From the NCBI GenBank assembly GCA_965197585.1, contig OZ240215.1:2112001-2176000 (forward strand): DNA of 64,000 nt, in the 5' to 3' direction. Both the position numbers and the translations under genes were made by a program. The DNA comes from Dehalococcoidia bacterium (GTDB lineage Bacteria > Chloroflexota > Dehalococcoidia > Plut-88900). The notes under the pieces are model-generated. The model did no database searches and was not told where the DNA came from. It saw only the letters and a program-made list of their open reading frames with translations. This document shows positions 1 through 8,508 of this stretch, in pieces (positions within the stretch are counted from its first letter, which is position 1; the number at the start of each line of letters is the position of its first letter).

Positions 1-1143
1 CTCCAGCAGGTAGTCGTTGTAGTTCTCGATGCCCACCCCTATGGTTATCAGCCGCAGCGGATTGTTGCTTTGCCGGTCGTCCGCCGACCGCAGGATTGCA
101 AAGGGGTCCGTCGCATCCACGTTGGCAACGCCGTCCGACATGAGGATCACGTAGTTGTAGGAGTCGGGGCGGTCATAACGCATCCGGTCGGCGATCCGAA
201 CGCCCAGGTTAAGTCCGGCCTGCACGTTGGTGCTGTTGTTGGGCCGAAGATTCCCTATGGAATTTGTGACCGCACGGTCGTCCGGCCTCCGACTCTCTAC
301 CGTGTACCGACCGATGACGTCATCCGAGAATTGGACGACGGAGATTCGGTCATTGCTCCCCAGGCTATTTCTTATCGATTCCGCCGCCGCCCGGGCTATT
401 TCCACCCGGTTCCCGTCCGACATTGACCCCGATGCATCCAGCACCAACGTAACGTTTAGGGGCCTGTTGTCATCCCTAACGTCCGGTGCCTGGAACGTTA
501 ACCGGGCCAGGTGCATCTCGCTCTGCAGCGGGTGTTCGACCAGCGCCGAGGAGATTGCAAAGCTGTTGTTGTCTCTCGGCCGCGCGTACTGGTAGTTGAA
601 TGCGTTGACCCATTCTTCCGCTCTCACCGAGTCCGGGTCGACCTGGTATCCCTCCCTAGCCCAGTTCAAAGCCAGCTGGAACGACGTCCGATCGGTGTCC
701 AGGCTGAACGTGGAGGTTCTGTCCCGAGAGGTCGCCACCAAAGGACTGCGCCGGTAGTCCTGGAATGTCGTAGCCGCGGGCACGGCGGTCGGGGCCGGAG
801 CCGCACTATCGGCTGAACGGGCCCATGCAAACGGGGTTGGTTCCGGCATAGCCGTTGCCCCTACCGAATAGGAGGAAGAGCTATTTTGACCGTAGTTGCC
901 GCTTTCGGGAATAGCGTCGTCCGCCTCTTCCATCATTGCCGTGGGCTCTGGCATCGCCATCGCCGGCACCGTAGTTGATGTAGCACTTGCTTTGTACGAA
1001 TCCGATCCGGACGTATAGGATGTACTCTCTGAACGCTCCCTCATCGCCTCGGGCGTTGCCGTCGCACCTTCTGCACAAGCGAACCCCACTATCGCCACCG
1101 CCATTGTCAAAATCAGGGCTATTGCTAAACGTCTAAACAGCAT
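1..1143 (-). CDS. von Willebrand factor A domain lipoprotein (YfbK-like), 3' end outside window
   Basis: Not in the ORF track because it runs off the edge. Manual translation from ATG 1143 (AGGAGG upstream) gives MLFRRLAIALILTMAVAIVGFAC (lipobox), a low-complexity linker, STFSLDTDRTSF, LVLDASGSM (MIDAS DxSxS), STNVQAGL and VILMSDG. Confidence 0.85.
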   Translation of the reverse strand, partial: MLFRRLAIALILTMAVAIVGFACAEGATATPEAMRERSESTSYTSGSDSYKASATSTTVPAMAMPEPTAMMEEADDAIPESGNYGQNSSSSYSVGATAMPEPTPFAWARSADSAAPAPTAVPAATTFQDYRRSPLVATSRDRTSTFSLDTDRTSFQLALNWAREGYQVDPDSVRAEEWVNAFNYQYARPRDNNSFAISSALVEHPLQSEMHLARLTFQAPDVRDDNRPLNVTLVLDASGSMSDGNRVEIARAAAESIRNSLGSNDRISVVQFSDDVIGRYTVESRRPDDRAVTNSIGNLRPNNSTNVQAGLNLGVRIADRMRYDRPDSYNYVILMSDGVANVDATDPFAILRSADDRQSNNPLRLITIGVGIENYNDYLLE

Positions 1144-1227
1144 TTCTCAGGCCTCCTTCTGATCGTGTATAGACTGTTAGACGTTTACCCCCTGTCTTTT
1201 GTTCCCTTACGCTCCCACCTCCCCATC

Positions 1228-1535
1228 CATCATTCTCGTGCCCCGACACGGCAATCCATCCCCCAGGCACGGGGCCGCTCACCCTGAGCGACGAGTCGAA
1301 GGGTCGAGCGAGGGGTGGCCCACCTTTGCCAATCCGTCGCCTGTGCCACCCCACCCACCCCCTACCCATCCCGATGCCCCGCGAGGGATCTAAAGCGCCC
1401 GCCTGCACAACACAGATGCCTATCCGGCCATCCTTGTCCCCCTTCCACCCCCTTCATTCCCGACTCCGATCGGGAATCCATCCCCATCCCCCCATTCCCA
1501 ACCCCGATCGGGCTGTAAGTGCGCCTCTGGCGTGA
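1228..1535. repeat. Cluster of REP-like palindromic units (TCATTCCC..GGGAATCCA type; CGCTCACCCTGAGC..GTCGAAGGG type; CCCCGCGAGGGATCT)
   Basis: The same units recur at ~1720, 57590, 57781, 61832-61965 and 63035-63247. Confidence 0.75.
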
Positions 1536-1570
1536 ATCCATCCCCCTCCCACTCCCCCCAAGATTGAACT

Positions 1571-1609
1571 AGAGGCCCGCACGGGTGCACAGCACCCGTG
1601 CGGGCCTCT
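1571..1609 (+). terminator. Perfect 18-bp hairpin, probable terminator
   Basis: AGAGGCCCGCACGGGTGC-aca-GCACCCGTGCGGGCCTCT followed by GTTCTTAT. Confidence 0.6.
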
Positions 1610-1791
1610 GTTCTTATCTCCCCCTCTCCCTTGAAGGCCCTAAGGGTCGAAGATGTCGTAGATGCGCCTGGGAGTGCGCCTGTCGCCTGACTTTACTTAT
1701 TCCCGGGGTGTGGGGGTTCCGCTCGCCCTGAGCAGAGTCGAAGGGTCTCAAGAGCGGAACGGGGTGGACTCCCAAGTGTGACACGAACCCC

Positions 1792-1821
1792 TTGACCCTA
1801 CCTGAACATACGTGCTATTAT
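1792..1821 (+). promoter_or_regulatory. sigma70-like promoter with extended -10 in front of the putative ncRNA
   Basis: TTGACC (1792-97), 18-bp spacer, TGc-TATTAT (1813-21). No credible CDS until 2644. Confidence 0.5.
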
Positions 1822-1827
1822 CCCCAC

Positions 1828-2500
1828 CGTTCGAACACCACCCCAACTATCTCAAGGAGGAACCAAAAACCCAGGGAAGCCCACTAGACCCACCCGAGGA
1901 CTCAACGCCTCAGCCCATCCCAACGGCCTTCGCGCAGGCCCGCGGCACAAGTGACCGGCGCCATCTCCTTTTCCCATCGGGTCCCGTGCCCCTTTCCCTG
2001 GTAGTCAGGCGATGGAAGATGCCTGGACGGCGTCATAGCGGAACGGCCATTCCCCGCCGAGACCCCGTCTCGAAGGTCGGTTAGCAGCGAGCTTACGCTT
2101 TATCAAGCTAGGGGTGGCGGACCGGCTATCCCCGTCCGAGACTCCCTCTCGGAGGTTGGCCCGCCTGCGAGCTTACGCCATATCAAGCAAGGGGCCGTTG
2201 GGCCGCTTGGACCCTCGGGTGGCCCACGCAAATAGGATATCTGAGGGGGCCACAGCCCGATCACTGGCCCCCATCATGCCTGCGGGCATTCAGAGGCGGG
2301 GTCACAGCCGGACTATCTCCCCGGAAAGTCCGCGTTTATCATCGAGCATTAGGGGTGGCAGGGCTTCCACGCCTCGGAGCAGCCCAACATCCGCCAGCAA
2401 AACGGGGCAAGGCCGACCAATCAGCGTCTTCCATCGCCGACCACCCAACAAGCCAATCAACACCCGAATCCCAACCGAATAACCCAAATCCGTAGGAGTG
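1828..2500 (+). ncRNA. Putative large structured non-coding RNA of unknown family
   Basis: Long-range complementarities 1890-99/2213-22 (10 bp), 1919-28/2193-2202 (10 bp), 2008-22/2424-38 (15 bp, one GU) and 1875-82/2361-68 (8 bp). Tandem ~78-nt repeat 2038-2115/2117-2195. Local hairpins. Overlapping ORFs do not look like proteins. Boundaries and strand are approximate. Confidence 0.5.
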
Positions 2501-2643
2501 ACCGGCCGGTCGACCTGAGCCGAGCTGCAAGTGCGCCTCTGGAGCATCGAAGGGAGTCTCAAGAGCGGAATGGGACAGGACGTCCCCGATTCAGCCGGCC
2601 AAGCCTGCTATAATCGGCCCATCCCCTCCCCCGGAGGCCCCAC

Positions 2644-3729
2644 ATGAGACCGCCATTTCAGGTCATAGACTCCGACGGCCATATCAATGAACCCGAAGAG
2701 ATCATCGCCACCTACATGCCGCCTCCCTATGACGCCTATCTCCACGCCTGGAAGGCCAATGCGGGCGGCGACGTCTACTCCAACAACACCCTGGTTCCCA
2801 AGCAGCCCGGCATGGACCCCACCATGGGCGGCGCCCTGGGCACGAACGGCCCTTCCGGATTCCCCTTTCCCTCCGACTGGCTTGCAATCATGGACAAGGC
2901 CGGTGTCGAGAAGACCTACCTCTATCCCACCGCCTTCCTTCCCTATTCCATGATGGTCGACCCCGAATACACCGTCGCCGTGACCCGTGCCTACAACTCC
3001 TTCATCCACGACCACTGGCTGCAGGTCAACGACAGGTTCGGCGCGGTCGCCGTCATGCCCCTGCTGGACGCCGAGGAGTCCGCCAAAGAGTTGCGCAGAT
3101 CGGTGACTGAGCTCGGGTTCGCCGGAGCGTTCACTCCCGCAGTCGGGTACGGGCTAATAGGCAGGAAGCAGAACCACCCCTTCTTCGCCGAGGCCCAGGA
3201 CCTCAACACCACCGTCGCCATCCACGGCGGCCACGCCACCGCCGAATACATACCCTACACACGGTTCATCCAGCGTCACGCAGTCGGGTTCCCGGTTTCC
3301 CAAATAATCCAGATGACCAGCCTCGCCCTTGAGGGCATATTCGAGCTGTTCCCCAACCTGCGGGTTGCATTCCTCGAAGCCGGGTGCACCTGGGTCCCCT
3401 ACATGCTCGACCGGCTCGACGAGGAATGGGAGCTGCGAGGCAAGGTGGAGGCCCCCAACTGCAAGCGCGCCCCCAGCGAGTACCTCCGAGGCAGCAACGT
3501 ATTCGTCCACCTTGAACCCAACGAGAAACTACTGCCCCAGACCATCGACATTCTCGGCGGCGACGCCCTGGTCTACGCCTCCGACTGGCCTCACTGGGAC
3601 AATGACTTCCCCAACAGCATCGATCACATCTGGGAGAGAGAAGACATCACTGAAGGTCAGAAGCGGGCCATCCTCAGGGACAACCCGCTCGCCATGTACG
3701 GGATCAGTGACTCGGAAGGAGGCGCTTAA
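2644..3729 (+). CDS. Amidohydrolase_2 family protein
   Basis: IDSDGH, AIHGG, FLEAGCTW and ASDWPHWD motifs; GGAGG RBS; TGcTATAAT upstream. Confidence 0.9.
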   Translation: MRPPFQVIDSDGHINEPEEIIATYMPPPYDAYLHAWKANAGGDVYSNNTLVPKQPGMDPTMGGALGTNGPSGFPFPSDWLAIMDKAGVEKTYLYPTAFLPYSMMVDPEYTVAVTRAYNSFIHDHWLQVNDRFGAVAVMPLLDAEESAKELRRSVTELGFAGAFTPAVGYGLIGRKQNHPFFAEAQDLNTTVAIHGGHATAEYIPYTRFIQRHAVGFPVSQIIQMTSLALEGIFELFPNLRVAFLEAGCTWVPYMLDRLDEEWELRGKVEAPNCKRAPSEYLRGSNVFVHLEPNEKLLPQTIDILGGDALVYASDWPHWDNDFPNSIDHIWEREDITEGQKRAILRDNPLAMYGISDSEGGA

Positions 3730-4163
3730 TGCCCCGATTCCCCTCCCTGGAATGGTTCGAGGAAGTCCGCCAGGTGTTCAACAGCGACGACGCCTTTCAG
3801 ACCGCCGGAGGCGGCTCCTGCGACGCCATCGTCGGGCTCAAGATAGGGAATGAAATCTACGTCATCGTCTTCGAGAGTTTCGAGTGTAGCTCTGTCCGTC
3901 TGGCGGAAGAGGACGATCTCTATGAGGCCGACTTCTACCTCGAAATGAACGGCGACGAGTGGCGGGAAATGATCCTGAACATCTCCGAAAATGGCTCAGC
4001 AGACCTGGACCATTCCCTTAACAGCATCGACCTCAACAAGTCCCCCGACAGCTTGGCCCACTCTCTGAACGAAGACGGCTACCGCATGGACTTCTTCTTC
4101 CGCTACAACCAGACCTTCCAGTACTTCTTCGACGCCTCCTCCCGCGTCGAGACGCAGTTCTAG
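3729..4163 (+). CDS. SCP2/sterol-carrier-like small protein
   Basis: FPSLEWF..V..VFNSD N-terminus typical of SCP2-like proteins; TAATG overlap with the upstream gene. Confidence 0.6.
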   Translation: MPRFPSLEWFEEVRQVFNSDDAFQTAGGGSCDAIVGLKIGNEIYVIVFESFECSSVRLAEEDDLYEADFYLEMNGDEWREMILNISENGSADLDHSLNSIDLNKSPDSLAHSLNEDGYRMDFFFRYNQTFQYFFDASSRVETQF

Positions 4164-4267
4164 CTCTCCCGCCAGCTATTCACCCGTTCGGCTCCGGCCT
4201 CGGAATTGTTGCCTCTCGGCTGTGGCCTCAATATACTGTGAAACACAGAAACTGTGAGGCTGCGACC

Positions 4268-4555
4268 ATGAAAAACATCACCCTATCCATTGATGAACAC
4301 ACCCATCGCCAGGCGCGTATAAGGGCTGCGGAGCTAGGCACTTCGGTGTCCGCTCTGGTCAGGGACTACCTGAAGTCTCTGGTTGCCGAGCCCCCGGAGA
4401 AAACAGCAGCGGATGTTCAGGGGTCAGAGACACCCTCGGAACATCCTGGCGGTTTAAAAGAATTGTTGGATGACTGGCAAGCGAAAGGCATAGGGCTGAA
4501 GATGTCCGAGAACCTGACCAGGGAAGAGCTTTACGACCGCAATGCGCTTCGTTGA
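4268..4555 (+). CDS. Ribbon-helix-helix antitoxin, copy 1 (no intact cognate toxin behind it)
   Basis: MKNITLSIDE..ARIRAAELGTSVSALVR..LTREELYDR; paralog of the next gene. Confidence 0.8.
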   Translation: MKNITLSIDEHTHRQARIRAAELGTSVSALVRDYLKSLVAEPPEKTAADVQGSETPSEHPGGLKELLDDWQAKGIGLKMSENLTREELYDRNALR

Positions 4556-4584
4556 TACTAAGCAGAACCTGTGAGGCTGTGACA

Positions 4585-4872
4585 ATGAAAAACATTACCG
4601 TATCCATTGATGAACACACCCATCGGCAAGCGCGTATAAGAGCTGCGGAGCTGGGTACGTCAGTGTCCGCCCTCGTCAGAAGCTACCTAAACCGCCTCGT
4701 GGCCAAACCACTGGAGGAGAAGGTGACTGAAGAGGAGTCGGAGACTCTCCTCGAGAGTCGCCGGAGGCTTTTGAGGGAAGTCATTGAGGACTTCGATGCG
4801 CGGGGCATTGGGCTCCGCATGTCTGAGAACCTTTCCCGAGATGAGCTCTACGACCGCAATGCGTTTCGTTGA
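4585..4872 (+). CDS. Ribbon-helix-helix (VapB-type) antitoxin, copy 2
   Basis: Same RHH N-terminus; overlaps the PIN toxin start. Confidence 0.85.
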   Translation: MKNITVSIDEHTHRQARIRAAELGTSVSALVRSYLNRLVAKPLEEKVTEEESETLLESRRRLLREVIEDFDARGIGLRMSENLSRDELYDRNAFR

Positions 4873-5272
4873 TACCAACGTTCTGATATATGCGGTTAGT
4901 CTTGATCCACGGGATGCCATTAAGCGCCGCCTAGCTCTCGAACTCTTAGACGAGGAGGACTTGGCCATTTCAGTGCAAGTGCTTCAAGAGTTTTATTCAC
5001 AGGCCACTCGTGTGACTCGGCCAATCCCGATTTCTCACGACGATGCTATAAAGTTTTTGCAACCTATCCTGAAATTCCAAATCCACCCCATCACCCTGGA
5101 AATCTTCCATTCCGCAATCGCAATCTCCCAACGCTTCCAACTCTCATACTGGGACGGCGCAATCCTCGCCGCCGCCCGAGCCCTCGGCTGCGACGCCGTC
5201 TACTCTGAAGATATGAGCTCGGAGCAGGACTACGACGGCCTCCGAGTCATAAACCCGTTCGCCGCCCCATAA
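4859..5272 (+). CDS. vapC: PIN-domain toxin
   Basis: MRFVDTNVLIY, QVLQEF, SYWDGAI, SED and INPF motifs. Confidence 0.9.
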   Translation: MRFVDTNVLIYAVSLDPRDAIKRRLALELLDEEDLAISVQVLQEFYSQATRVTRPIPISHDDAIKFLQPILKFQIHPITLEIFHSAIAISQRFQLSYWDGAILAAARALGCDAVYSEDMSSEQDYDGLRVINPFAAP

Positions 5273-5350
5273 CCGTCCCTTGACCCCACCCCCCACCCCA
5301 CCCTAAACTCCCCCAAAATCAAGCATCCATATCCTTCCGGAGGCACACCC

Positions 5351-6679
5351 ATGTCCACTAACGAGTCCAGAAAATACGTCATAGTCGGCGCGGGAATTCA
5401 CGGTCTCAGCACCGCGTGGCACCTGGCAATGGACCTCAAGAGCCGTGGCCAAGGCTCCGGCAGGGACATACTGGTCCTCGAAAAGAGCCATGTCGGAGCG
5501 GGGGCTACAGGCGTAGCCTGCGGCAACGTCCGAAACTTCTACATGACCGAGGCCCTGCACCCCATCCTCAAGCACAGCGTCGACGTCTGGATGCACGACC
5601 CAATCAACTTCGGGTTTCAGCAGGTGGGATACGTCTCCTGCGGCGAGGCCAACCAGACCCCCGACTTCGAGAAGATGCACAAGTCTCACAATTCGGTGGA
5701 CTACACTTCCAACCTGTACGTCGGCAAGGAGGCCCGAGACTTCCTCACGTCCATCTGGCCCGACTTCAAGACCGATGGCATAGACGTGGCCCTGGACGAA
5801 CGTCTCAGCGGTTACGTCGGCACCCGAAACGTTCTCCGCGGTCTGGTGGAGAAATGTGAGCAACACGGGGTCGAGATTCGCACGGGCGTCGAGGTCACGG
5901 GCTACGACACCCGGGCAGGTAGCGTCAAGGCAGTAACCACAAACCAGGGCGAAATCGACTGCGACGCGGTCATCTGGGCCCTCGGCGCCTGGACTCCCAA
6001 GCACTGGGCCATGCTCGGCAAGCCCTCCCACATCGACTGCTCCTACTCGGACGGCTCCATAATCAACAAGGACATGTGGACCTTCTGGAGACTCCGGGAA
6101 GGCGAGGTCTACTTCGACGAACCCTACGTAACCCCGGAGGGCAAGAATCCCCCCATCCTCCACATCGAGAAGATGAGCACCCCCGTCTACGACGAGAGCA
6201 CTGGCGAGATGCTCCGGGACTACCTGTACGTATACTTCAAGAACGCCAACGAACGGATGGAGAGCCCCGGCCTCCAGGGCGGCATCACACCCGTCAAGAT
6301 TGGCCCCGACGCCGTTGTAGACCCCTACGGCCACTCCAACGAGCTCTACCAGGCCGAGCCCGAGTTCGCCGACTACTTCTGCGCCGCAATGGGCGCCACA
6401 ATGTCCCGTTTCGAAGGCATCAGGTCGTCCTTCAAGCAACGGCCCAACGGCGGCATCGGCGCTTTCACGCCCGACAACCTGCCCGTCCTCGACTGGGTGG
6501 CCCCCAACGTCTACATGATCGAAGACAGCAACCACGGCTTCAAGATGATCGGGATAGGTAAGCTGGTATCCAAGCTCCTGATGGGTGAGGATGTCCCCGA
6601 CCTGAAACCCTTCGCCTTCAGCCGCTACGCCGAGGGCAAGACCTTCGGCAGCAACAACAGCCATTCGCCGTGGGTGTAG
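5351..6679 (+). CDS. FAD-dependent oxidoreductase, DAO/sarcosine oxidase beta-like
   Basis: GAGIHG Rossmann motif, GAGATGVACG, GAW, TPDNLPVL and NHGFK. Confidence 0.88.
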   Translation: MSTNESRKYVIVGAGIHGLSTAWHLAMDLKSRGQGSGRDILVLEKSHVGAGATGVACGNVRNFYMTEALHPILKHSVDVWMHDPINFGFQQVGYVSCGEANQTPDFEKMHKSHNSVDYTSNLYVGKEARDFLTSIWPDFKTDGIDVALDERLSGYVGTRNVLRGLVEKCEQHGVEIRTGVEVTGYDTRAGSVKAVTTNQGEIDCDAVIWALGAWTPKHWAMLGKPSHIDCSYSDGSIINKDMWTFWRLREGEVYFDEPYVTPEGKNPPILHIEKMSTPVYDESTGEMLRDYLYVYFKNANERMESPGLQGGITPVKIGPDAVVDPYGHSNELYQAEPEFADYFCAAMGATMSRFEGIRSSFKQRPNGGIGAFTPDNLPVLDWVAPNVYMIEDSNHGFKMIGIGKLVSKLLMGEDVPDLKPFAFSRYAEGKTFGSNNSHSPWV

Positions 6680-7620
6680 ACGGTCTACAGGCCCGATTGG
6701 ACTCGGGACCCGTCCTGATATTGGACGGCGCAGTCGGCACTGAGCTCGAAAAAATGGGTGTGCCCATGCACGGGCAAGTCTGGTGTGCCTCTGCGCTGGA
6801 CACCCATCCCGGCATCGTCCGCCAACTCCATGAGGACTACATCAACGCTGGCACCGACATCATAACGTCCAACTCCTACGCGTCCTCGCCTCACAATCTG
6901 GAGTCCGCGGGCCTCGGGGACCGGGCCGTAGAACTGAATGCCCTGTCCATCAAGCTGGTCAGGGATGCAATCGCCAACACCGCTCCCGGCAGGCCCATAT
7001 GGGTTGCCGGTTCCATGTCCAGCTTCGGGGTATACGCCTTCAGCCGGAGGGGACGCAGCCTTTTGCCGTTCCCCGTGCTTGAAGAGAGCTACCGACTTCA
7101 GGCCCACGCTTTGGCAGATGCCGGCGCTGACTTCCTCCTCCTCGAAATGATTCGAGAGGCGGAACACGGCTCAGCACTCCTGAGAGCGGCCCTTGAGACC
7201 GGGCTCCCGGTGTGGGTCGGGCTCAGTTGCAGCCTTACCCCTGAGGGTGAAGTCCACATGCTCTCGGAGGTTGAGCCAACTGCACCCTCAGAGCTCGACT
7301 TCCTGGAAACCCTCGACGAGGTGATGTCAGTCGGCGGTTCCCTGCTGGCCGTAATGCACAGCGATGTGCCCTGCATCAGCCCCGCGCTGAGGGCTGCGCG
7401 CTCAAGTTGGAAAGGCCCCCTCGCCGCCTACGCCAACTCCGGCACTTTCTTCGTAGTATCTGATCCGGATGTCAGGAGGATCGTTCCCCCCGATACTTAC
7501 CTGCAGCACGTGCAAGAGTGGGTAGAGTTGGGCGCTAGAGTCGTGGGAGGTTGCTGCGGTGTGGGTAGGGAGCACATCCGCCTAATCAGCGAGGCTTTCG
7601 GCAGCGCATCGGTGAAATAG
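6670..7620 (+). CDS. Homocysteine S-methyltransferase family protein (BHMT/MmuM-like)
   Basis: ILDGAVGTEL, HEDYINAG, YANSG and GGCCG. Confidence 0.88.
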   Translation: MGVDGLQARLDSGPVLILDGAVGTELEKMGVPMHGQVWCASALDTHPGIVRQLHEDYINAGTDIITSNSYASSPHNLESAGLGDRAVELNALSIKLVRDAIANTAPGRPIWVAGSMSSFGVYAFSRRGRSLLPFPVLEESYRLQAHALADAGADFLLLEMIREAEHGSALLRAALETGLPVWVGLSCSLTPEGEVHMLSEVEPTAPSELDFLETLDEVMSVGGSLLAVMHSDVPCISPALRAARSSWKGPLAAYANSGTFFVVSDPDVRRIVPPDTYLQHVQEWVELGARVVGGCCGVGREHIRLISEAFGSASVK

Positions 7621-7815
7621 TCAAAATCGCGGCGACTCCACGAAGCGCAACTCCGTGCGCCGCGGGTAGTTTTCCAGGTGAAGTGGTTGTTTGTACAATT
7701 GCTGTTCCGAATGATCTGTCATACTGATAGCAAGACAACCGTTTTATTGCGGTAGTTGTGATTCCAAGGCCTGCCCTTACCCGCTGTTAGGCAGGAATGT
7801 TTGGGGGGGTGAGCA

Positions 7816-8508
7816 ATGATAGCAAACACACTAGAACCAAAATCTTGCCCTACTTTTGACGGCATTTACGATATCCCTGAGGCGGCAAGATACCTAAAGG
7901 CCGCTACGCACGGAGACTCGATTTACCCGGTGAGTCCTGCCAAATTGATACGGTGGATTCGACGCGGGCTTGCATCTCTAGAACTTGTCGATTTGTCTGG
8001 GCTTGAGCTGCTAATTGCTTTTGAGGACTTAGTCTCCATGCGTGTCATCGCTGCACTTAGAGCTGCGAGTGTTAGCTGGCCAGAAATATACAAGACTGAG
8101 AACTGGCTGCGCGCCGAGACTCGTGTACAGCGACCATTTGCTACTGAACTAATATGGACTGGTCAAGGGCAGGTTTTCACCGAATGGACCGGCCGCTTGC
8201 TTTCCGCAAGTCGGCATGGTCAGTTAGCACTTGAATTACTGCGTAAATACCTAATCCCAGTGCATGGCCTAATCTTCGATGACTCATCCTTGGTTGCTAC
8301 TTCTTGGGAGCCCGTATCAGGTGTAATACTTGAACCTAGAGTGCAATTCGGCGCCCCGTGTATCAAAGGCACTCGCATCCCCACACGTACTATCTCCGGC
8401 ATGGTAGAGGCAGGCGACACGGTCAGATGGATCACTGCCGCATATGACCTTTCATCGAACGAGGTGCAGGCAGCTTGTGATTGGGAATCTCGAATCCGAT
8501 CCGTATAG
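7816..8508 (+). CDS. HTH + DUF433 antitoxin (VapB45-like)
   Basis: YDIPEAARYL N-terminus; C-terminal PRVQFGAPCIKGTRIP DUF433 signature; lower GC. Confidence 0.85.
   Translation: MIANTLEPKSCPTFDGIYDIPEAARYLKAATHGDSIYPVSPAKLIRWIRRGLASLELVDLSGLELLIAFEDLVSMRVIAALRAASVSWPEIYKTENWLRAETRVQRPFATELIWTGQGQVFTEWTGRLLSASRHGQLALELLRKYLIPVHGLIFDDSSLVATSWEPVSGVILEPRVQFGAPCIKGTRIPTRTISGMVEAGDTVRWITAAYDLSSNEVQAACDWESRIRSV

Follow-up and report, generated by a model that had tools for sequence, protein, structure and literature searches.

A tandemly repeated 79-nucleotide RNA module inside a dispersed, promoter-bearing intergenic element of one Dehalococcoidia genus

Pneumococcal BOX elements, which are organized as boxA-boxB(n)-boxC, and the BIMEs of enterobacteria are mosaic intergenic repeats that contain a variable number of internal tandem modules, and the Correia elements of Neisseria are promoter-bearing MITEs. 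All of these families are dispersed, ORF-free, modular, and gene-adjacent, and their members fold as RNA and are co-transcribed with neighbouring genes or transcribed in their direction. The element that we describe here lies in a 64,000-nucleotide stretch of DNA from a Dehalococcoidia bacterium (the window), and it resembles these families in being dispersed, ORF-free, modular, and gene-adjacent, with a variable number of internal modules. It differs from these families in that the module it repeats has 79 nt, several helices, and probably a pseudoknot, and is not a simple hairpin. It differs further in that a core of ~430 nt, closed by a long-range helix, lies behind a conserved 5' domain of 250 nt that has its own promoter, and in that the core can be of at least seven unrelated types.

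Several structured RNAs are also relevant for comparison. Tandem aptamers are known for the glycine and glutamine (glnA RNA) riboswitches, and the present element likewise places two or three similar structured domains in series, with (putative) pseudoknots; unlike those riboswitches, it has no coherent gene association and no Rfam match, and its domains lie within a mobile multi-copy element. The large RNAs HEARO/omega RNA, OLE, GOLLD, and ROOL are heavily paired and sometimes multi-copy, their functions are unknown or were found recently, and each has one conserved architecture. The present element differs from them in its constant 5' domain with swappable cores, and again in the lack of an Rfam match. 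No IscB- or TnpB-type gene adjoins the element among the neighbouring ORFs compared with Pfam. A search with the Rfam 15 families returned no match at E<=1 for window positions 1-8000 and none at E<=10 for positions 1760-2500.

In type III antitoxin RNAs, the repeats lie behind a promoter, fold into pseudoknots, are 34-45 nt long, and are followed by a terminator and a toxin gene. The units described here are also tandem direct repeats behind a promoter with putative pseudoknots, and in the antitoxin RNAs ToxI, CptI, and TenpI the repeats are reported to number sometimes only two or three (PMC4627078). We rejected a type III antitoxin as an explanation because no toxin gene follows the repeats: the next gene, which encodes an Amidohydro_2 protein, is 450 nt away, and other copies of the element precede unrelated genes. 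A search for the ToxN family (PF13958) in the genome to which the window belongs (the source genome) gave no match, but control genomes were equally silent, so this search is uninformative.

The earlier note on this DNA had described a tandem repeat of ~78 nt at this locus. Tandem Repeats Finder bears this out, reporting a head-to-tail duplicate at window positions 2038-2194 with a period of 79, 2.0 copies, 79% matches, 3% indels, and a score of 198. A repeat search resolves two conserved blocks between the units, a 5' block of 43 nt that is 79% alike and a block of 28 nt that is 89% alike, the latter being GCGAGCTTACGC...TATCAAGC..GGGG. The CGAGA/TCTCG hairpin that had been proposed is present in unit 1 (2058-2062/2068-2072) and in unit 2 (2137-2141/2147-2151), and the CGGCY/GGTYG and GCTT/AAGC pairings, the two motifs of the 28-nt block, and the CCCC...GGGG runs were all found where they had been placed. 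The length given for the CGGCY/GGTYG stem did not stand, since the outer stem has 11 bp (GCGGACCGGCY / GGTYGG..CGC) and not 5. The coordinates of these and the other features of the element are collected in Table 1.

Table 1. Features of the tandem-unit element in the window, with related modules elsewhere in the source genome
Feature	Position	Strand	Basis or remark
Shared 5' module	1771..2017	+	50 copies in the 3.43-Mb source genome reach the 5' arm
Sigma-70-like promoter, TTGACC-18 nt-TG-TATTAT	1792..1821	+	10/12 matches, with TG
SD-like AAGGAGG in the 5' module	1855-1861	+	
5' arm of core-closing long-range helix	2008..2022	+	15 nt, 93% complementary to 2424-2438
Unit 1	2038..2116	+	covariance model, 81.3 bits
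Unit 1 P1 (outer helix)	2038-2048/2075-2085	+	covariation counts
Unit 1 C-run; G-run	2052-2055; 2111-2114	+	sequence
Unit 1 inner hairpin; short hairpin	2057-2062/2068-2073; 2091-2095/2104-2108	+	
Unit 2	2117..2195	+	covariance model, 94.8 bits
Unit 2 P1 (outer helix)	2117-2127/2154-2164	+	covariation counts
Unit 2 C-run; G-run	2130-2133; 2191-2194	+	sequence
Unit 2 inner hairpin; short hairpin	2136-2141/2147-2152; 2171-2175/2184-2188	+	
Two conserved core hairpins	2245-2252/2265-2272 and 2276-2280/2285-2289	+	
Degenerate unit-like module D	2309..2355	+	covarying stem
Module D hairpin; C-run in its loop; G-run	2309-2314/2327-2332; 2319-2322; 2352-2355	+	
Module D ATCGAGC motif	2341-2347	+	ATCRAGC across elements
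3' arm of closing helix	2424..2438	+	
C/A-rich, G-poor tail after the folded core	2439..2508	+	
Distant single modules, source genome (examples)	G000:C1:671536-671614, 601222-601302, 1126508-1126586		

Its recurrence puts the pair well beyond chance. A covariance model finds 87 units, at 62-98 bits, in 39 elements among the examined loci, while the next-best matches to the unit model in the source genome reach ~18 bits (E ~0.5). A coding reading was also rejected: a period of 79 cannot be divided by 3, the units vary in length from 77 to 87 nt, and the overlapping ORFs (1812-2084 and 2114-2482) belong to no Pfam family, and we therefore regard the pair as non-coding.

On the plus strand, each unit comprises an outer helix of 11 bp, an inner hairpin of 6 bp, and a short GCUUR/CAAGC hairpin. 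Pairs were counted on this named structure in 76 distinct units, which come from 39 elements distributed over 8 genomes of the genus. Standard pairs occupy 93.6% of the pair cells, compared with 30-50.5% after the 3' partners have been shifted by 1-3 columns. Double compensatory changes occur at seven pairs, and 74 double-change cells were observed against 35.7 ± 3.9 in shuffled data, with none of 500 shuffles reaching 74, although the 76-87 units are related copies and such cell counts overstate the number of independent events. The outer helix is paired in 94% of its cells and has two-sided changes at 6 of its 11 pairs (pair 5-48, for example, is AU in 32 units and GC in 23, and pair 3-50 is GC in 34, AU in 11, and GU in 9). 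The six pairs of the inner hairpin are formed in 97% of cells (pair 25-37 is AU in 47 units and GC in 28), and several pairs of the unit show three pair types. This covariation in the outer helix and inner hairpin supports the proposal that an RNA-level domain has been duplicated, with differences that leave the stems intact.

G-U pairs are frequent, with pair 9-44 being G-U in 60 of the 76 units and pairs 1-52, 8-45, and 11-42 in ~30 each. Since these would be A-C oppositions on the other strand, the RNA is read from the plus strand, which is also the direction of the element's promoter. The short hairpin keeps at least four of its five pairs in 77 of 78 distinct units, and all 13 units that lack pair 1 have G-C at pair 5; these 13 units are probably one lineage, so this compensation lends modest support to the short hairpin. 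The most invariant stretch of the unit, GCGA-GCUUR-CGC...AUCAAG, lies outside the long helices. In single-sequence folding of positions 2000-2445, both strands beat their shuffles (z = -4.7 and -4.1), a result that does not tell the strands apart and in which the unit 1 helices are not reproduced. RNAalifold applied to 27 whole cores recovers the closing helix and unit 1 and pairs the strands of unit 2 elsewhere, and support for the helices was therefore taken from the counts on the named structure and from the tallies. We conclude that both 79-base stretches are real, evolutionarily maintained folded RNA modules, and that, as far as structure and selection go, the original reading of a duplicated functional RNA domain is supported.

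The C-run and the G-run would add a further helix to each unit. GGGG is present in 78 of 78 distinct units and CCCC in 76 of 78, and in the two exceptions, both C-to-U changes, a G-U pair is still possible. Because the two runs are invariant, they offer no covariation for their pairing in the canonical units. Their pairing there is thus neither proven nor contradicted, and it is proposed by analogy with module D, a degenerate relative of the unit in the same core. The loop-tail pair X-Y of module D, scored in 36 distinct elements (35 by regex and one row, L025, by eye), is C-G in 6, G-C in 16, and G-U in 13 + 1. Likewise, a distant single module found in other cores keeps the layout of the unit with CCCCC...GGGGG, while its linker is unrelated. 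C-runs, G-runs, and units are equal in number in an array, and every G-run comes after the unit to which it belongs, so that pairing within units leaves no run over. These three points, namely the module D pair, the distant single module, and the matching run counts, indirectly favour a pseudoknot. If the C-run is paired with the G-run, the strand order becomes P1-P2-P3-P1'-P4-P2', a nested double pseudoknot.

The distant relative belongs to the 12-copy core type of the element family, where it occurs singly as GCGGACCG..CCCCC..GAGAACCGTCTC..CGGACCGC...GGGGG and scores 17-18 bits (model R1). Its presence there as a single module dates the module to before the tandem array.

The unit pair opens the closed core of an ORF-free, promoter-bearing element of ~700 nt (window ~1771-2480). 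The 1.1-kb gap in which this element sits is a patchwork of repeated modules; a VWA-domain gene (1-1143, minus strand) borders it on the left and an Amidohydro_2 gene (2644-3729, plus strand) on the right. One promoter-like site was found against 0.3 expected in shuffled sequence, and its -35 hexamer is kept in all six source-genome copies. Indels between copies of the 5' module are not multiples of 3, and the ORF that overlaps this module has no Pfam family. Nine pairs of the closing helix are kept in 27 of 27 aligned cores, and a matching 3' arm follows the 5' arm in 38 of the 50 family copies. In the more downstream of the two conserved core hairpins, two pairs change from AU/UA to GC/CG by double changes in 8 of 27 sequences. 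The tail beyond the core is composed of 36% A, 39% C, 17% G, and 9% T in the window, and of 37% A, 38% C, 14% G, and 11% T on average in 38 family tails, in a genome with 28% G. A terminator-like hairpin was not found after the core (a search of window positions 1300-2800 gave no terminator-like site past 1610). Given a promoter ahead and no terminator behind, the simplest reading is that the element yields a long structured leader or a promoter-proximal RNA.

This core is present in six copies in the source genome that are 92-100% identical over the unit pair, and the ~50 copies with the 5' module carry at least seven unrelated core types (clusters of 12, 10, 6, 6, 5, 4, and 4, plus three singletons). 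The many dispersed intergenic copies that are typical of REP, BIME, or MITE repeats are thus found for the element, six times with this core and 50 times with the 5' module, but not for the unit. A GTGACAC...GTGTCAC pair flanks 8 of the 50 copies, and similarity between copies runs on past the right-hand GTGTCAC, so the ends of the element are not defined. In many copies (e.g. G000:C1 ~851160, minus strand; L034/L044), the right flank after the C/A-rich tail reads CCCCACAATCGAAGAT..GCCT.AGGAGGACTGAA.AAAA..CGTGTCAC-TAAYCTACC-GAACGAGTACACCC..TTGAC, an SD-like sequence followed by an apparent second, outward-facing promoter. This part is missing from the window's own copy.

Other repeats are found close to the element. 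A repeat module at 1531-1646 contains a perfect 18-bp terminator-like hairpin (1571-1588/1592-1609) followed by a T-rich run. The genome has ~25 copies; in the others a second hairpin (CCCCCTCTCCCTTAATGGCCCTAAGGGAGAGGGGG) follows the first, and the arms of the first hairpin differ between copies with compensatory changes. A module of ~65 nt, ..CCTGAGC.GAG..GAAGGG.TCTCAAGAGCGGAA.GGG, occurs at 1699-1767 and again at 2506-2574, each time just upstream of a promoter-like site, and has ~35 further copies in the genome. Positions 1205-1400 belong to another dispersed repeat family, with ~55 blastn matches across the genome at 70-98% identity. Farther downstream, the adjacent 316-nt stretches 4246-4561 and 4563-4878 are 74% identical, and since they coincide with ORFs 4238-4555 (105 aa) and 4552-4872 (106 aa), they represent a tandem gene duplicate.

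The source genome contains exactly 12 strong matches to the unit, which form six pairs. Within one Dehalococcoidia genus, the covariance model found units in 8 of 9 genomes, the numbers being 12 (G000, the source genome), 2 (G001), 2 (G002), 0 (G003), 17 (G004), 8 (G005), 12 (G006), 23 (G007), and 15 (G008); two further G004 pairs turned up in one of the searches only. The 87 units of the 39 elements are arranged as 30 arrays of two and 9 of three, and a diverged second unit was recognized in three arrays that had counted as single with a plain profile. In the source genome, the genomes of the class, and the loci examined, the unit was never seen outside arrays of two or three in this element, which rules out a free REP-type repeat. 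The covariance-model comparison of single with tandem occurrences that the earlier note had called for therefore yields only arrays of two or three, and the genes downstream of the six source-genome copies are unrelated to one another. That note had also set its reading against two findings, dispersed high-copy REP repeats or an absence of structure-conserving variation: the units do reside in a dispersed multi-copy element, but they are never solitary and their variation does conserve structure.

Beyond the genus, none of three sister genera of the family contains a unit, and a search of 151 genomes of the class gave one 27-bit match, which lies in coding-like DNA and was taken as chance. An exact motif scan of 185,579 species genomes gave 11 single matches outside Dehalococcoidia records, all at <=27 bits, with ~13 estimated by chance, and metagenome contigs gave 13 single motif matches, also all at <=27 bits. 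As judged from these searches, the tandem module is restricted to the genus. When 78 distinct units are placed in a maximum-likelihood tree, the 38 distinct first units all group in a single clade (100/99), with the middle and last units outside it, indicating that the duplication took place before the element spread through these species. By the same tree, the unit positions have kept their identities, and the third unit is placed as a derivative of a non-first unit.

The genes that follow the six source-genome copies encode an Amidohydro_2 protein, a luciferase-like monooxygenase, a CoA-transferase III, UvrA, a class Ic tRNA synthetase, and, on the opposite strand, an inositol-1-phosphate synthase. 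Across the family, the next gene is co-oriented in 40 of 50 copies (binomial p = 2.4e-5) and lies a median 608 nt beyond the end of the 5' module, and the upstream gene is divergent in 31 of 50; these orientation counts rest on a crude home-made gene caller that called 2566 genes at 80% coverage. In the window, the units are ~450 nt from the start codon of the Amidohydro_2 gene, with further structure and the tail in between. At the orthologous site upstream of this gene (L059-L067), the tandem-unit element recurs in one other species; in three more the same 5' module is followed by different cores, and in four no element could be detected. Positions 2604-2643, which hold the promoter and SD sequence of the Amidohydro_2 gene, are conserved in all nine genomes, with or without this core. 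The amidohydrolase gene thus keeps its own conserved promoter, and read-through from the element may be irrelevant to it.

Evidence for expression of the units is weak. Contigs from four RNA libraries, of four studies, lie mainly over the 5' module, and one contig of depth 2.7 (X19) spans 1984-2191 and so covers both units; such contigs give neither strand nor ends, and DNA may be present in libraries of this kind. Positions 2199-2480 have no contig cover, which is uninformative on expression. In X20, contigs of relatives include the predicted -35/-10 region, and three of them begin ~10 nt upstream of 1778, next to adapter sequence. Because these contigs include the promoter hexamers, a start just after 1821 is a poor fit and the transcription start is uncertain.

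With moderate confidence, we favour the reading that the units are one plus-strand RNA module of ~79 nt, present two or three in a row and making up, with a degenerate relative, the first half of an exchangeable, helix-closed core. We suggest more tentatively that the element has a leader role in which the units are repeated, cis-acting structural or docking modules and do not sense a metabolite for the downstream gene. The element's promoter would drive a long structured leader, usually towards a co-oriented gene, and the compact pseudoknot modules would act in cis as repeated structural blocks. They may serve stability as a barrier to exonucleases, or they may be docking sites for one host factor, and the number of units, two or three plus one degenerate, would set the dose. 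The modules would sense no metabolite tied to the downstream gene.

The strongest competitor, to which we give a limited but real chance, is an independent trans-acting ncRNA of ~650 nt that ends in the C/A-rich tail by Rho-type termination and whose modules titrate or scaffold a host protein in the manner of a sponge. The G-poor, C/A-rich composition of the tail in 38 family copies fits such an RNA, as do the variation in unit number between two and three, the separate promoter of the downstream gene, and the position of the most invariant stretch outside the long helices, where a recognition site would be expected; the strong co-orientation with the next gene, however, is not required by it. 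We consider it rather unlikely that the folded RNA and its units help the element itself to spread or to be maintained, for instance by acting as the cofactor of a transposition or recombination enzyme encoded in trans. Copies of the element are many and dispersed, its occupancy and core type differ between species at an orthologous locus, and cores are exchanged behind the constant 5' module, all of which a selfish element would explain. Yet no enzyme gene is linked to the element here, its ends and target duplications are not defined, and known guide RNAs vary in a short guide and not in a folded core of 400 nt.

HDV-like ribozymes have a P1 of ~7 bp, a 3-bp P3, a conserved L3, a P1.1, and an invariant catalytic C in J4/2. 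The units are of similar size (~70-85 nt), and if the C-run and G-run pair, their strand order equals that of the HDV-like nested double pseudoknot; in addition, 31 of 76 units begin their outer helix with a G-U pair. Agreement with the HDV-like class ends at this putative strand order, and we rejected that identity. The outer helix has 11 bp, the inner hairpin has 6 bp and a variable loop of 3-8 nt, and the junction between the short hairpin and the G-run has no invariant C, being A, AA, TA, GA, or others. That each unit is instead a self-cleaving ribozyme of a new class with the HDV-type strand order, the arrays being cut into unit-length RNAs, is quite improbable in light of the same differences; in addition, the Rfam ribozyme models gave no match at E<=10, 15 of 78 units have A or T in place of the C of CAAGC, and one RNA-library contig is uncut across both unit borders. 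Still less credence goes to a tandem riboswitch, in which ligand-sensing aptamers would control the downstream gene. The arrangement of two or three similar pseudoknotted domains between a promoter and a co-oriented gene is what such a riboswitch would have, but the genes behind the six copies form no coherent set, and because they are unrelated a tandem riboswitch is unlikely; in sister species, moreover, the amidohydrolase gene is preceded by other cores or by none, the search for terminators found no expression platform in the ~450 nt up to the start codon, and Rfam holds no match. The 'aptamer pair' of the earlier note is not supported, on the same grounds, with relatives carrying other cores at the same locus and no riboswitch or ribozyme model matching at E<=10. 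Least credible of all is a DNA-level repeat with no RNA role, either a slippage duplicate on a mobile element or a set of protein-binding sites in DNA. The pair does sit in a dispersed repeat, in a genome rich in mosaic intergenic repeat modules; the compensatory changes and strand-specific G-U pairs, on the other hand, argue for selection at the RNA level, and the first and later units have stayed distinct clades with neither homogenisation nor decay.

A bolder version, which we regard as improbable, is that the unit represents a new class of RNA fold that is itself active, either as a self-cleaving module or as a bacterial pseudoknot that resists exonucleases, and that has been tandemly multiplied for redundancy as in the flaviviral xrRNAs. 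The element family would then consist of mobile RNA genes in which a constant promoter and 5' domain carry exchangeable cassettes, the tandem array being one type.

The portion of the literature available to us on multicopy structured RNAs of Dehalococcoidia and on bacterial tandem-pseudoknot ncRNAs contains no description of this RNA. The tandem pseudoknot-type module appears to be new, and the mobile structured-RNA element that encloses it looks unpublished. If the fold and an activity were confirmed, an undescribed pseudoknotted module would join the few structured RNAs from uncultured Chloroflexota, and bacteria would gain a rare example of a single RNA domain that has persisted in two or three tandem copies through speciation. 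The module would also provide a small handle, 79 nt in length, on a larger puzzle, namely a family of ~50 elements per genome that bear promoters, encode no protein, and exchange their folded cores among copies and loci. Should the modules only stabilise transcripts, they would still be an example of mobile leader and promoter modules that shape gene expression.
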